Positions 33,054 to 38,481 of a stretch of DNA of 64,000 nucleotides are shown one piece after another. Under the pieces are notes generated by a model. That model searched no databases, had not been told where the DNA came from, and saw only the letters and a list, made by a program, of their open reading frames with translations. The stretch comes from Blastocatellia bacterium (GTDB lineage: Bacteria > Acidobacteriota > Blastocatellia > UBA7656): contig CAVXWP010000001.1 of NCBI GenBank assembly GCA_963765495.1, forward strand, positions 672,001 through 736,000. The letters run 5' to 3'. The position numbers and the translations under genes were made by a program. Every line of letters begins with the position of its first letter. The stretch's first letter is position 1.

Positions 33054-33329
33054 TTAACCGCCCGCGATTGCCGGGACTATCGAAACCTCTGCGCCTTCGG
33101 GCACTCGCGTTGCCAGATTGTCAAGAAAGCGCACGTCTTCGCCGTCAATATAGATGTTTATGAAGCGGCGCAATTCGCCCCCCTCATCGCACACACGGGA
33201 TTGGAAACCCGGATAGCGCGCCTCAAGTTGAGTGATCAAGTCTCTCACGGTCCCGGTTTCGACTTCGACCTCTTCGAGGTCGCCTGTGAGCTTGCGTAGC
33301 GGTGTCGGTATGATTAGCTTGAGTGACAT
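33054..33329 (-). CDS. MoaD/ThiS/CysO-like ubiquitin-fold sulfur-carrier protein
   Basis: 91 aa; [22 protein letters not shown]-terminal PAIAGG. Confidence 0.92.
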
Positions 33330-33361
33330 TATGATTCTCCTTTCAATCGAAATGGTTTAGA

Positions 33362-33460
33362 GATGAAGCGTGATCCGTGATTTTCAGCGGGCTTGCTTGT
33401 ACCAGACAATTTGCAAATCTGTTCCGGTCACGCATCACGCATCGCGCATCACGCATCACG
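33362..33460. repeat. inverted heptamer arrays (GCGTGAT / ATCACGC)
   Basis: gatgaagcgtgatccgtgat ... tcacgcatcacgcatcgcgcatcacgcatcacg. Confidence 0.75.
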
Positions 33461-33464
33461 TTAA

Positions 33465-34703
33465 TCAGGCAGTGGCCGCAAAGCCCGAGATCACGCTTTC
33501 GAATTGAGCGAGGCGAGGCTCGATTACTACGGGCGGCCCAAGCTCGACGGCCTCCTGCGTCTTCAGCCCGTTGCCTGTGATGGCGATGACCGTCACTTCA
33601 TCGGGATTGATGCGCCCCTGCTCGATCAACTTTATGGTCACGGCGACCGTAACGCCCCCGGCGGTTTCCGTGAATATGCCTTCTGTCTCGGCCAGTAATC
33701 GGATGCCCGATCTGATCTCGTCATCGGAAACATCTTCGGCCCAGCCGCCGCTTTCGCTGATTACACCCGCAGCATAGTAACCATCCGCCGGGTTCCCAAT
33801 CGCGAGCGATTTTGCAATCGTCGCAGGCTTGACGGGGCGGATGTCGCGCGATTTGCGCTTGACGGCATCGGCTATGGGGTTGCACCCTGTTGCCTGCGCG
33901 CCGAAAATGCGCGTCTTTACTTCTTCTTCGAGAAGCCCGAGCCGTTCAAGCTCTTTCAGCCCCTTGTGAATCTTTGTGATGAGAGACCCCCCTGCCATCG
34001 GCACTACTACGTTTGCCGGGGCGCGCCAGCCTAGCTGCTCCGCTATCTCATAACCGAAGGTCTTGGAGCCTTCGCCGTAAAAAGGTCTGAGATTGACGTT
34101 GACAAATCCCCAGGGATGCCGCTCCGAAATCTGGGTGCAGAGACGGTTCACATCGTCGTAATTGCCGCGCACGGCCACGACTCGCGCTCCATAAATCGAG
34201 GTCGCGGTGATCTTGCTCTTTTCCAGATTTTCAGGGATGAGGATGTATGCGGGCAGACCGGCGGCGGCGGCGTTTGCTGCTACCGAGTTTGCCAGATTGC
34301 CGGTCGAAGCGCAGCCGACCGCTTCGAGCTTGAACTCCTTAGCTTTATTTATAGCGACTGCCGTGACCCGATCTTTGAAGGAAAGAGTGGGAGAGTTGAC
34401 GCTGTCGTTTTTGATGTAGAGACGCGAAAGGCCAAGCCGTTTAGCGAGGCGGTCGGCCCGCACGAGCGGAGTCCCGCCGCTTGTCTGGCCTACGACGGGT
34501 TCTGAGTCCAGAGGCAAAAGCTCGCGGTATCGCCAGAGTGAGGGCGGGCGCGAATAGATGACTTTGCGTGTCAGCGCGCGTCCAATCGCTTCGTAGTCGT
34601 AATCAATTTCCAGTGGCGCGAAACAATCCGCGCATCCGGCTGAAGGTTCTTTCGGGTAGCTGCGCCCGCATTCCCGGCATCTCAATCCGTTGACAAAACT
34701 CAT
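33465..34703 (-). CDS. threonine-synthase-like fold-type II PLP enzyme (possible O-phosphohomoserine sulfhydrylase)
   Basis: N-terminal CRECG...CADC Zn-ribbon, PTLSFKDR PLP lysine, CASTGNLA, ITGNGLKT. Directly upstream of the sulfur carrier and downstream of SAM riboswitches. Confidence 0.85.
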   Translation of the reverse strand: MSFVNGLRCRECGRSYPKEPSAGCADCFAPLEIDYDYEAIGRALTRKVIYSRPPSLWRYRELLPLDSEPVVGQTSGGTPLVRADRLAKRLGLSRLYIKNDSVNSPTLSFKDRVTAVAINKAKEFKLEAVGCASTGNLANSVAANAAAAGLPAYILIPENLEKSKITATSIYGARVVAVRGNYDDVNRLCTQISERHPWGFVNVNLRPFYGEGSKTFGYEIAEQLGWRAPANVVVPMAGGSLITKIHKGLKELERLGLLEEEVKTRIFGAQATGCNPIADAVKRKSRDIRPVKPATIAKSLAIGNPADGYYAAGVISESGGWAEDVSDDEIRSGIRLLAETEGIFTETAGGVTVAVTIKLIEQGRINPDEVTVIAITGNGLKTQEAVELGPPVVIEPRLAQFESVISGFAATA

Positions 34704-34793: not shown

Positions 34794-34830
34794 CAAAAGA
34801 AAAAGCCCCGCGCCAAACTAGCGCGGGGCC
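34794..34830 (-). terminator. intrinsic terminator of downstream riboswitch copy 2
   Basis: Minus strand GGCCCCGCGCtagtttgGCGCGGGGC followed by TTTTTCTTTT. Confidence 0.85.
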
Positions 34831-34849
34831 TGCTTTCAGTCTCCGGGCT

Positions 34850-34905: not shown

Positions 34906-34945
34906 GAAAGAACAAAAGCCCCGCGCTAAACCAGCGCAGGGCTTT
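34906..34945 (-). terminator. intrinsic terminator of upstream riboswitch copy 1
   Basis: Minus strand AAAGCCCTGCGCTggtttAGCGCGGGGCTTTT GTTCTTTC. Confidence 0.8.
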
Positions 34946-34961
34946 CGAAAAACTCTCTCGC

Positions 34962-35059: not shown

Positions 35060-37945
35060 TCACTGATTTTTTTGCGATTTTGTTTCTGCGCCCGCAAGCG
35101 CATCAAACCGTCGCTTTGTTTCATTTGACCAGCCGGGGATCAACTCTGTAACTGTGCCTTTGTCGTCTACGATAAACGACATCGGGACCGACACCTCTTC
35201 CGTAGCGTACAGCTTTTCGATAGCCGGAACTCCGCCTACATAAACCGGATAGCTGACGCCTTTCTGCGCGAGGAACCCCTTGATGTCAACACCCGACTCC
35301 GTATCGACGCTCAATCCGATCAGATCGATGCCGCGCGCCGTAAAGCGCGAGCGCAGCTTTTCAAGCTCGGGCATTTCGCGGGCGCAGGGCGCGCACCACG
35401 TAGCCCATACGTTGATGAGCAGACGGCGACCGGGGCGCAGTTGTTTGCGTAGAGTGGTCGCCCGCCCGTTCGCAGTCTTCAAAGCCAGATCGGGCGCGGG
35501 GCGGCCCACGGCTATTTTTAGTCCTCGGGCGAAGCTTTCAACTCGCGTCAATGGATCGGGCAGGTTCGCGCGTTTTAAGGCAAACGGTTCGGCGGTTCCC
35601 GCGCCCTCGCGCAGCAACAGGTTTGAGCCTGCTTTCGTTTCTGCCTCGAATCGTTCGGTCTTGCCGTTTGGCCATGTGACTTCTATCCACTCGGCGCGCT
35701 CGTCTCGGCCTAACCCGAAAAGCAATCGCGGGTCGTTTTGCGAGATGAAGCCTGAGCCGCCGCTCTTGATCTTTGTCAGCGTACCGGCTGATGTCTTCAC
35801 GCGCACCACTGCGCCGTAAGCATCGCGCCCTACATCCTTGCCGCCTTCGAGCGATATTCGCAAATAGTTGTTTGCCTGCCCTACGTTATTGCGAAAGAGC
35901 AGGTGCGAATCACCCTGAATGGTTGTGATGAAAACGTCGAGGTCCCCGTCATTATCGAAATCGGCGAAGACGCCTGCGCGACCGTCGCTGATCGAATCTA
36001 TGCCGGAGACGCCTGATACATCCAGGAATTTTTTTGTGCCGAGGTTGAGATAAAGCGGATCTCGTTCGTACCCGCTGAAGGAGAATCCCTGCTCGGAAAT
36101 CAATTGATTCTGATCATTGCGGAGCGCGCCTTTTTCTTTGCTTGAGTCATTTGTCTGCGTCACGACCTGACGCCAGAAATGACTTCAGGTGTCTTTCATC
36201 GACTTGCCCGAGATAAACCCGTTTGGCGAGTACAAATCTTCCCACCCGTCATTATCGAAATCAATAAAGCCGCCGCCCCAGGCCCACCCGCCTGAAAATC
36301 CGCCCACTTCCGATGTTACGTCGCGGTACTTTCCGTTGCCGAGATTTTCATAGAGGTTGTTGCCCGCGGCCAGTTTCTTCAGCACGTTGTCTTTCGAGCT
36401 CGAATTCGGAAAGAGCCGCGACAGAATGCGATTGCCCGCGGTCGAAGACATGTTTGTGGCGTGAAGATCGAGAAGACCGTCGTTGTTGTAATCCCCGAAT
36501 GCCACCCCCATGCCGTTGCCGGGGTCGAGCACTCCCCGCTCTTTCGCCTCGTCAACAAAGTGGTCGCCTTTGTTTATGTACATGGCTTTTTCGCCGAAGT
36601 CGTTTGCCACGTAAAGGTCGAGGCGACCGTCGCCGTTTGCGTCAAAGAACTCAGCCGCGTAACTCCACCGGCGGTCGTCAACCCCCCACTTCGCGGCCTC
36701 TTCGCGGAAGCGGCCTTCGCCCTGATTTATAAAGAGCAGATTGGGCGTGCCGTTCGTAGCGCGAAACCAGGAATCCGGCGTCACCTGTCCGTAACGGTTA
36801 TAACAGGATACGTAAATATCGGGGCGACCGTCGCCGTTCACGTCTCCGGCCACGGCGCTGAAGCCTATGCCCTGTATCGAAACCCCCGCTTCGAGCGAGA
36901 CATCCGAGAATTCGAGCTTGCCGTCGGGGACCATTCGATTTTCCAGGAGGATTTGCGAACCAACCGTCGAGATGAATATGTCTTCGTCACCGTCGCCGTC
37001 ATAGTCGAGCACAAGCGGCGCGACCCCGGTGGCCAGGCTCTTTACGCCCGCTTCGGTCGAAGCATCTCGGAAACGCCCGTGACCGTCATTCAAATACAGG
37101 TAATTTCGATCAGGCGCGGTCACAAACAGATCCATCCACCCGTCGCCGTTGAAATCAGAGGCCGCCGCTCCGTGCCAGATGAAGCCGTTGTTGCCCGCCG
37201 AGCCGTAAGAGGGAAGCGTGGCTGCTACGCCTGCGGGCGCGCTCACCTCAGAGAAAACATCCGTAGTTGCGACCATCGAATCGAGGCTCGCAAGTTCGAA
37301 TGAATCAAACTGCCATCTTCCTTTTGCCGCGCGTCGGGCGTTTACGTATGTGACGCCCCGCGCCCATTCGCGCTGGCCCTCGGTGTTGCGGCCTATCACA
37401 TAAAACGCGAGGCGGGCGCGACCCACAGGATTTGCCTCCTCAGGCGAATTCTTTGCATCAGCCGAGGCGGGCGGATTGAAATTAGCCTCTTTGACCTTGA
37501 AGCGAACATCTTCGATTTCGGCGAAGTGATCAAGAAATCCCGACCAGTCTTTAAGGAAACTTTCTTTCGTCATCGTGCGAAGCGCGGGTTTGCCCTCTTC
37601 GCCGTTTACTCCCCAGTCGCGCATGGCTATCCACTTGACCTGATTCTTGACAGGCAACGGCCGGGAAGGGAACGGGGCAGCCTGTAGCTTGTCGGAGAAG
37701 AATTCCGCAGTGCGCTCCGCGTTGCGATCCCGCGTTGCGACCGACAGTTCGAGCATATCGTTGGCGAGCGATTCGGATAAATCCTCGACCTGCTCAAGGC
37801 GTGTGATCTCGCCTGCGGGTGGCGATTTCTGTTCCTGCGCGCTTGCTTTGCGAGTGACCACTGCCGCAAGACAGAGCGAAAACGCGAGGCAAAGACACAA
37901 CAGCGCCCTGCCTGAACGCGATGAGAGCAACTTTAACAACTCCAT
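35060..37945 (-). CDS. secreted FG-GAP repeat / ASPIC-UnbV (CRTAC1-like) / TlpA-thioredoxin fusion, 961 aa, with predicted selenocysteine at codon 587 (TGA 36187-36185)
   Basis: ORFs 36185..37945 and 35060..36163 are in the same frame and separated only by TGA plus 7 sense codons (KDT*SHFWRQVV). Six DxxxDG repeats lie before the TGA and one after. WATWCAPC near the C-terminus. SECIS-like hairpin immediately 3' of the TGA. Confidence 0.78.
36145..36184 (-). promoter_or_regulatory. putative bacterial SECIS element
   Basis: AGUCAUUU-CU-G-GCGUCA-[GGUCG]-UGACGC-AG-AC-AAAUGACU: 8-bp lower stem, 6-bp upper stem, G-led apical loop 18 nt after UGA. Confidence 0.75.
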
Positions 37946-38049: not shown

Positions 38050-38077
38050 TTGACAAAGCCGAGCGGCGAATTATAAT
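38050..38077 (+). promoter_or_regulatory. sigma70 promoter of the Tat-protein/amidase pair
   Basis: TTGACA-N16-TATAAT. Confidence 0.7.
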
Positions 38078-38106: not shown

Positions 38107-38481
38107 GTGGAATCAGTGAGCAAGCCATCTGAGAAAGATCAGCACAGAGAAGCCCGTCGAAACTTCGCAAAGACGCTGGCGGTCGTTGCCGCAACTCCGT
38201 TTGTGTCGCGCGCAGCCCCGGCTGAATCGGGACAACCAGTATCGGCCAGGGCTTTAGCTTTGCAAACTAAAGCACCTGAAAAGCATTCGCCGACAGCCGA
38301 GGCTCTGGGCGAGGCCGTGCGCTACCAGTACGGCAAGTACCTCGACGAAGATCAACTGGACAAAGTGAAGGGCAGCATAGATCGAGGGCTGCGCTCGGCT
38401 GAAAGGCTCAAACAGTTCAAGCTGAAAAACAGCGACGAACCGGCATTCACCTTCAGCGCCGATTTACCGTCAGCAAAATGA
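38107..38481 (+). CDS. small Tat-signal protein, probable amidase partner subunit (start may be GTG 38116)
   Basis: ARRNFAK twin-arginine-like motif plus hydrophobic stretch; C-terminal LKNSDEPAFTF; directly precedes an amidase. Confidence 0.65.
   Translation: MESVSKPSEKDQHREARRNFAKTLAVVAATPFVSRAAPAESGQPVSARALALQTKAPEKHSPTAEALGEAVRYQYGKYLDEDQLDKVKGSIDRGLRSAERLKQFKLKNSDEPAFTFSADLPSAK

Follow-up and report, generated by a model that had tools for sequence, protein, structure and literature searches.

A probable selenocysteine-encoding UGA in an acidobacterial gene for a probably exported CRTAC1-like propeller protein fused to a TlpA-like domain

Does an in-frame TGA in the middle of a long bacterial coding region separate two genes, or does it encode selenocysteine (Sec, U)? 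This question is raised by the locus at 35060–37945 on the minus strand of a 64 000-nucleotide stretch of a Blastocatellia genome (assembly GCA_963765495.1, contig CAVXWP010000001.1, positions 672,001 to 736,000; hereafter the window). The original prediction, made from the sequence letters and a list of open reading frames (ORFs), had proposed that two ORFs lying there in one frame and split by a TGA belong to an unrecognised secreted selenoprotein. The arrangement was found as described: ORF1 (36185..37945, minus strand, 586 aa) has the C-terminal end NGFISGKSMKDT, which is followed by the single internal TGA at 36185–36187, and ORF2 (35060..36163, minus strand) continues in the same frame with SHFWRQVVTQ. 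Read as one unit, 35060..37945 (minus strand) is a 961-codon frame from Met1 to Gln961, in which the internal TGA is codon 587, the proposed Sec587, within the motif D-T-U-S-x-F-W-R; the terminal stop of the gene is also TGA (35060–35062). We conclude, with a probability of about 0.88, that this region is a single gene for one exported fusion protein, CRTAC1-like and TlpA-like, with a genuine Sec-encoding UGA and a Sec insertion sequence (SECIS). That selenium is incorporated at UGA587 itself is what we infer from sequence and comparison.

We surveyed 401 genomes sampled from the phylum Acidobacteriota. There were 46 matches at E ≤ 6e-68, of which 45 (from 44 genomes) contain exactly one TGA and one (G418) contains none. 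The TGA column was identical in 32 of the 32 ortholog loci examined, always in D-T-U-S-x-F-W-R. When 41 relatives were compared, four orthologs from other genera (61–72% identity) were found to have one TGA each, at the same column; 14 TGA forms with only 30–40% identity and with other architectures have their TGA at the same aligned column as well. The distant TGA subfamilies code for proteins of 780–1417 aa, some with tetratricopeptide repeats. The closest relatives in named genome records are from Pyrinomonadaceae and other Acidobacteriota metagenome-assembled genomes (MAGs), at 83–85% identity, and a scan of such records located TGA at this column in 16 loci, the phyla of which include Planctomycetota, Verrucomicrobiota and Gemmatimonadetes (MAGs) together with one MAG labelled Proteobacteria; ten TGA loci in MAGs of Acidobacteriota and of these other groups come on top of the orthologs and distant forms described above. 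By manual count, at least 61 published genomes among the 401 carry a TGA form, to which the unpublished G087 is to be added. Orthologs are present in several complete genomes of Acidobacteriota consisting of one contig, among them G291, G203, G181, G233, G123 and G223. Both halves of the window gene are 47–72% identical to relatives and show no further stops or frameshifts, and in all 13 neighbourhoods compared the ORF halves lie next to each other with the same orientation. Thus, the UGA is in frame and the conserved frame continues past it, as in a selenoprotein gene.

The 40 nt that follow the TGA had been described as a near-perfect stem-loop reminiscent of the E. coli fdhF SECIS. Folding of the 61 nt around the TGA gave −19.2 kcal/mol (z = −3.3), a stability reached by none of 200 shuffled sequences, and the apical loop GGUCG (36163–36167) lies at nt 21–25 counted from the U of UGA. 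The fold was therefore confirmed, but not its conservation over the whole length: the stem-loop kept in orthologs is the upper part of 6–7 bp (36156..36174, minus strand; nt 14–32; stem GCGUCA/UGACGC), whereas the extended lower stem (AGUCAUUU / AAAUGACU; 36145..36184, minus strand) lengthens the hairpin in this window only and is absent from orthologs as a conserved feature. The bSECISearch model reportedly expects a G/U-containing apical loop about 16–37 nt from the UGA. Here the loop GGUCG has G and U at nt 21–25, the stem covaries, and it is degraded in sequences lacking the TGA (see below). An Rfam scan of 36000–36300 at E ≤ 10 returned no match. The GTG from which ORF2 would start (36161–36163; nt 25–27, 8 codons past the TGA) is placed at the junction between the loop and the 3′ arm, inside the hairpin as had been noted, and this codon specifies the conserved Val of a Val-Val pair.

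Covariation was analysed on 41 distinct sequences forming a gap-free alignment, drawn from 63 TGA sequences after removal of duplicates and of hairpins in another register (L085, L086, L088, L090, L099–L106, L112 and L113). For the 7-bp helix spanning nt 14–32, 86.1% of the cells are paired, as compared with 28–74% when the partner column is slid. Pair 18–28 is CG in 22 sequences, UA in 11, GU in 4 and GC in 1, with 3 unpaired and 16 double changes, and the covariation score was reached by none of 500 shuffles. The first of these bases, position 18, is a synonymous site (third base of an Arg codon), while position 28 opens the next Thr, Ala, Ser or Pro codon as its first base; the combinations seen are CGU with ACG, CGC with GCG, and CGG with UCG or CCG. 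A linkage of this kind is not predicted by protein constraint. Where the TGA column is occupied by a sense codon (27 homologs, most of them with the same FFWRQVV-type peptide), the stem is paired at only 3.6 of 7 positions, and the median local folding energy is −8.4 kcal/mol versus −11.8 kcal/mol in 55 Sec forms (Mann–Whitney P = 1.2e-5, a value to be read with the relatedness, hence non-independence, of the sequences in mind). In other subfamilies the register of the hairpin is slightly shifted (by about 3 nt further downstream in L085, L086 and L090) and the loops are GGUC, CGUG.. or GUGC, with GU still 22–26 nt from the UGA. The expectation that homologs would retain the TGA along with a covarying hairpin was thus borne out.

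If this UGA is recoded, the organism must be equipped to do so. The window genome (G000; 7.3 Mb, 97.9% complete) contains selB (374 bits; cut-off 242), selA (566 bits; cut-off 268) and selD (386 bits; cut-off 125), all above the curated cut-offs, and a tRNA-Sec scoring 71 bits in Rfam, which ARAGORN calls as tRNA-SeC with anticodon tca; the machinery on which the original prediction depended is thus present. The same genome also offers an internal point of comparison in its FdhA gene (contig C10:124691-127717; loci L171 and L172), which is a canonical selenoprotein gene with one in-frame TGA (ARI-U-HSASV). Its hairpin, GUGCCC-GGUCU-GGGCAU with the loop at nt 22–26, can be set beside that of the propeller gene, GCGUCA-GGUCG-UGACGC with the loop at nt 21–25. 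In both cases a short GC-rich hairpin follows the in-frame UGA, with a loop that starts with GGUC some 21–22 nt from the U, and because of this resemblance in loop sequence and distance we liken the hairpin studied here to the SECIS presumably read by the organism's SelB. One set of SelA, SelB, SelD and tRNA-Sec would serve both genes. The proteins themselves are unrelated: in FdhA, Sec belongs to a U-H-x-P motif and is a ligand of Mo or W, according to Table 1 of PMC13188914, whereas that of the propeller gene is in D-T-U-S-x-F-W-R on an excursion of the propeller. The proposed mechanism follows canonical bacterial SECIS recoding: the conserved stem-loop of 6–7 bp, which begins 11 nt past the UGA and has its loop at nt 21–25, would be bound by SelB carrying Sec-tRNA(Sec), and Sec would thereby reach the ribosome.

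The machinery was also sought in the other genomes. Of the 44 genomes with an ortholog, 39 yielded selB, and in each of the remaining 5 selA is present above the cut-off. Among 18 further genomes with TGA forms of other subfamilies only, 17 have selB and the last one (G248, 75% complete) has selA; this tally comes from manual reading of the hit lists. Conversely, four genomes of a single genus (G202, G133, G242 and G252; 99–100% complete) are without selA and selB, and the homologs examined there all have sense codons, for Gln, Ser, Ala or Gly.

Homologs with Cys at the column, named as a check in the original prediction, exist but are rare (P0002, P0008, P0011, L108, L116 and L203; 6 of 140 tree rows). 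P0002, predicted from an NCBI genome by the protein collection's own gene call, is a 961-aa protein of full architecture that reads DT-C-SHFWRQVV, keeps WCAPC and branches in the tree as the sister of a Sec form. P0011 belongs to a cluster named 'CRTAC1 family protein [Planctomycetota]' (accession MCZ6493522.1 among others), and L108 and L116 come from Verrucomicrobia. The tree is a quick one (140 rows, 223 columns, long branches; hits covering <150 query residues were left out). On it the Sec label changes at least 13 times overall and at least 6 times on supported branches, gains and losses not being distinguished by the tree. An ancestral Sec lost several times seems a more parsimonious history than a UGA and a hairpin gained several times at one column.

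These results have to be weighed against simpler explanations of the TGA. It could be a true stop between two genes, ORF1 (an incomplete propeller) and ORF2 (the last blade with the ASPIC and TlpA-like domains), in which case ribosomes would re-initiate at the GTG 24 nt further on to translate ORF2. Gene callers do split the locus in this way: ORF1 of the window is in the collection as the 586-aa P0042, 82 of the 120 best database hits are proteins of 548–650 aa ending at this point, and a GTG is available 8 codons past the TGA. Such an organization is nevertheless highly improbable given that a single frame is shared in 45 of 45 TGA orthologs, that the DT-U-S-x-F-W-R residues flanking the TGA are among the best conserved of the protein, and that the GTG is a conserved Val codon buried in the hairpin. 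We rejected the hypothesis of two coupled genes on the shared frame, on the sense-codon homologs, which read straight through the column, and on the propeller, which spans the TGA and needs strands from both sides of it. Stop codon read-through stimulated by a downstream structure is known in other systems, and a near-cognate tRNA inserting Trp, Cys or Arg at the UGA, helped by the hairpin, would also yield the long product; distant generic CRTAC1-like homologs even align Trp or Tyr near the column. This explanation was rejected as well, being quite improbable in view of the presence of selB and/or selA in every TGA-form genome checked, of the exclusive use of sense codons in the homologs examined from the four complete genomes devoid of Sec machinery, of the match between the hairpin and that of the organism's own FdhA in loop sequence and distance, and of the residues in closer homologs, which are Cys, Ser or Ala and not Trp. 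Lastly, nothing but the stop codon itself speaks for a sequencing or assembly error or for a pseudogene; the sole sequencing run containing the stretch is soil-metagenome DNA, probably the sample of origin. Of the 46 ortholog hits, 45 (from 44 genomes) keep the TGA, which recurs in other phyla, and both halves of the gene are conserved and otherwise intact; a sequencing error is thereby ruled out, and the probability of either artefact or pseudogene is negligible.

Several observations weigh against reading the codon as Sec. No RNA run among the listed sequencing runs contains the locus. One Ser ortholog without TGA (L071) still pairs 6 of the 7 stem positions. In the loop, G22 and U23 double as the first two bases of the conserved Val codon, so that their conservation is inseparable from protein constraint. 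The gene selB is present in 296 of the 401 sampled genomes, which makes co-occurrence alone weak evidence. Finally, in addition to the rarity of Cys, most non-TGA homologs have Ser, Ala, Arg, Asn, Glu, Asp or Gly at the column, and from this variety it follows that the residue is dispensable for whatever role those homologs play.

What kind of protein would be made? The first 36 residues (37838..37945, minus strand) form a basic and hydrophobic segment, with K/R residues, ALLCLCLAFSLCLAAVV and then ASA/QE, modelled as a helix (residues 2–33) at low confidence; it is likely a signal peptide or membrane anchor. The protein is probably exported, given this signal-like N-terminus and the fact that FG-GAP/CRTAC1 and TlpA-like proteins are usually extracytoplasmic. 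An alpha/beta domain follows (residues ~44–230; 37256..37816, minus strand), which is confidently modelled, is conserved in orthologs and includes the conserved motif EDLSESLAN; it has no Pfam or NCBIfam match, and the protein atlas returned only unnamed 'hypothetical protein' clusters for it. The FG-GAP beta-propeller spans residues ~250–700 (35846..37198, minus strand) and contains DxDxDG calcium-type motifs (Pfam FG-GAP_3, E = 1.1e-44 over six stretches; FG-GAP, E = 1.9e-21). As had been noted, a further repeat motif and all the later domains lie beyond the TGA: the last DxDxDG motif (D662–D670), the ASPIC/UnbV domain (UnbV_ASPIC, PF07593; residues 709–767; 35645..35821, minus strand; E = 5.3e-16, 58.7 bits versus a cut-off of 23.4) and a TlpA/ResA-like thioredoxin-fold domain (residues 813–943; 35117..35509, minus strand; AhpC-TSA, E = 2.5e-19; Redoxin, E = 3.3e-19). 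The latter includes the CxxC motif W-C851-A-P-C854 (35384..35395, minus strand), which is invariant in the ortholog alignment and present in 32 of 32 TGA orthologs.

An AlphaFold2 model built on a 24-row alignment reached a mean predicted local distance difference test score (pLDDT) of 84.2 and a predicted template modelling score (pTM) of 0.84; strands of the propeller are modelled both before and after residue 587. Residues ~575–630 form an excursion of ~55 residues between the last blade strands, and Sec587 starts a short helix (586–595) within it. The model thus fits the earlier proposal of a Sec on a propeller loop, but only with low confidence for the segment concerned (pLDDT near 50). 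The best Foldseek match was murine CRTAC1 (9etn_A; E = 2.1e-30, template modelling score 0.74 on the target), and the C-terminal domain matched ResA, TlpA and DsbE structures with E between 1e-11 and 1e-8.

In the most likely reading Sec587 would be a redox-active residue. Once oxidised, to a selenenic acid or a selenenylsulfide, it would be resolved by the fused CxxC domain, which in turn would be re-reduced by the extracytoplasmic reducing system of the cell. To this Sec–CxxC redox relay, an idea already present in the original prediction, we give roughly even odds. What speaks for it is comparative. All 32 TGA orthologs keep W-x-x-x-C-x-x-C, and in 8 of them these are the sole two Cys of the frame. 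We tallied Sec and CxxC over 119 rows, leaving out 21 rows whose loci are too short for the C-terminal domain: 55 rows have both U and CxxC, 11 have U without CxxC, 47 have neither and 6 have CxxC without U. The 11 U forms without CxxC consist of 5 with a local U-x-C (URC, USC or UTC) and 6 of a U-L-P type. The Ser ortholog L071 is devoid of the whole TlpA-like domain, as is the Glu form L076, and three long forms (Asn, Gln and Asn at the column) keep an AhpC-TSA-like domain without any CxxC. Presence of either a fused CxxC or a local U-x-C is as predicted by a selenenylsulfide relay, and the co-occurrence pattern suggests one.

The 55 of 66 TGA forms with a downstream CxxC favour the proposal, and other observations speak against it. 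Besides the 6 U-L-P forms, which have neither CxxC nor U-x-C, six non-TGA forms keep CxxC (P0002 with Cys, P0013 with Val, P0014 with Leu, P0016 with Ser, and P0017 and L074 with Ala). The tree offers 5 independent contrasts on supported branches, and CxxC moves with Sec in 2–3 of these and against it in none (P = 0.25). The distance between Sec and CxxC is not fixed by the model because of the low pLDDT of residues ~575–630. Docking prediction of the TlpA-like domain on the propeller, carried out with a natural Cys ortholog, gave no placement (score 0.00, mark 0.32), which counts neither for nor against the relay. Comparison of 13 neighbourhoods of 18–20 kb gave no hint of a substrate, as the only genes in common are the gene's own two halves and no neighbour is conserved.

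A different role for the same residue also deserves consideration. Sec587 might be a ligand for a metal or metalloid, the TlpA-like domain keeping the site reduced for loading, as TlpA does for the copper chaperone ScoI. The Foldseek matches do include complexes in which TlpA forms a mixed disulfide with ScoI or cytochrome oxidase subunit II (4txo and 4txv), the U-x-C of the 5 domain-less forms could be a two-ligand metal motif, and Sec is a metal ligand in formate dehydrogenase and NiFeSe hydrogenase, according to section 7 of PMC13188914. Set against this, no further conserved set of Cys, His or Met ligands was identified near the site, and 8 orthologs have the Sec and the CxxC as their only Sec or Cys residues. 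We consider metal ligation an unlikely but plausible alternative to the redox relay.

Two subfamilies may be mentioned beside the relay. Tandem paralogs of ~780 aa with the motif D-L-U-L-P were found on contig C3 of G011 (L034, L036, L038 and L040) and on contig C616 of G024 (L032, L035, L037 and L039). Each has its own in-frame TGA and none has a TlpA-like domain or a U-x-C, so that their Sec is not explained by a relay of this kind. A U-x-C subfamily without thioredoxin-fold domain, with the motifs D-G-U-[RST]-C-[VL]-W or D-[LT]-U-S-C, comprises L085, L086 and L090 from Acidobacteriota and L103 and L113 from Pirellulaceae MAGs.

How does the protein compare with known families? With an FG-GAP propeller followed by a UnbV_ASPIC domain, it belongs to the CRTAC1/ASPIC-UnbV family: FG-GAP_3, FG-GAP and UnbV_ASPIC all score above cut-off, murine CRTAC1 (PDB 9etn) is its best structural match, and its non-TGA relatives are named 'CRTAC1 family protein' in databases. 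Generic members of that family are different in that they lack a TlpA-like domain and have Trp or Tyr close to the column; relative to them, the Sec clade adds the N-terminal domain, the D-T-U-S-x-F-W-R excursion and the thioredoxin-fold domain. By its thioredoxin fold and W-C-x-x-C, the C-terminal part is a member of the TlpA/ResA/DsbE oxidoreductases, with the difference that it is fused here to a large propeller protein. NCBIfam matched this domain only, and every score was below cut-off (ResA 78.7 versus 170, TlpA 64.4 versus 230, a third model 44.6 versus 123); scores so far below the cut-offs designate a relative and not an equivalog. TlpA/DsbE-like domains fused to methionine sulfoxide reductase domains exist (PilB/MsrAB type), and they provide a working analogy for the relay, since there too a thioredoxin-like domain would recycle the oxidised residue of a fused catalytic domain. 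The catalytic domain is unrelated, however, and the match to NF010625 concerns the thioredoxin part only (15.2 bits versus a cut-off of 522). A weak match was also obtained with a model for predicted selenoproteins having a TlpA/ResA-like domain (NF041054; 43.9 bits versus a cut-off of 300). In such families, as listed in Table 1 of PMC13188914, Sec is inside the thioredoxin motif; in the protein studied here that motif is all-Cys (WCAPC), and Sec587 is outside any thioredoxin-like motif, 264 residues upstream in another domain.

The original prediction had not recognised the family as an established selenoprotein family, and our searches agree with it. Among the 119 prokaryotic selenoprotein families of Table 1 in Zhang et al. 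(AEM (Applied and Environmental Microbiology), May 2026; PMC13188914) there is no FG-GAP, ASPIC/UnbV or CRTAC1 entry, and the main text of that article contains none of the terms FG-GAP, ASPIC, CRTAC, propeller or Acidobacteri. Term searches of the deep-Sep (PMC12013277) and BSepDB papers turned up no reference to the family, and the supplementary lists of these papers (111 families for BSepDB, Table S2 for deep-Sep) could hold it. No NCBIfam selenoprotein model scored above cut-off with the 961-aa protein, and a full-text literature search retrieved no paper linking selenoprotein with FG-GAP, ASPIC, UnbV, VCBS, CRTAC1 or bacterial beta-propeller. The family is probably undescribed. It would be a new selenoprotein family with a canonical recoding apparatus, unusual in its propeller fold, in having so few Cys homologs and in its spread across soil phyla. 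A bolder reading, to which we give even odds, makes the window gene the first recognised member of a large and so far unnoticed family of exported selenoenzymes, in which a CRTAC1-type beta-propeller is the scaffold and Sec would be recycled by a fused CxxC or a local U-x-C.

Such a family may well have been overlooked, because gene callers truncate its members at the TGA and because pipelines searching for Cys/Sec pairs filter it out, most non-Sec homologs having Ser, Ala or Arg; indeed, deep-Sep may filter out candidates without Cys homologs, as stated in its description (PMC12013277). The protein collection contains the Sec forms as the truncated 548–650-aa proteins mentioned above; those that have a name are called 'VCBS repeat-containing protein', 'FG-GAP-like repeat' or 'hypothetical protein'. 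Many truncated entries in public databases with a VCBS-repeat or 'hypothetical' label would then really be N-terminal halves of selenoproteins, and a family with so few Cys homologs would mark a blind spot of current selenoprotein prediction. With at least 61 published genomes out of 401, it would be a frequent selenoprotein of Acidobacteriota and, if our reading is right, Sec-form genes occur in several major soil and aquatic phyla. It would also mean a catalytic role for the ASPIC/UnbV/CRTAC1 fold, which is without assigned function in the sources examined; the combination of a Sec with a fused reductase domain provides a testable redox hypothesis for the function of this propeller.

The surroundings of the gene in the window look unrelated to it (an amidase, a pyridoxal phosphate (PLP) enzyme and a ThiS-family protein). 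An intrinsic-terminator-like hairpin (34913..34947, minus strand; a 16-bp stem and a T run, recognised by consensus match only) is located ~110 nt past the stop codon, which suggests that the selenoprotein gene ends its own transcript; no terminator-like hairpin was found between ORF1 and ORF2. A second terminator-like hairpin (34803–34831, minus strand) lies ~80 nt from the first one; the arms of both resemble GCCCCGCGC..GCGCGGGGC, and both are situated between the selenoprotein gene and the PLP-enzyme gene. At 33054–34703 (minus strand), a gene for a ThiS-family small protein (91 aa) is directly downstream of that for the PLP-dependent enzyme (412 aa, PALP). This pair, which is not conserved beside the selenoprotein gene in other genomes, may constitute a sulfur-carrier-dependent amino-acid synthesis unit. 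On the other side of the selenoprotein gene and divergent from it, a perfect 12/12 match to a sigma-70-like promoter (38050–38077, plus strand; TTGACA, 16 nt, TATAAT) precedes a 124-aa ORF without Pfam family at 38107–38481.

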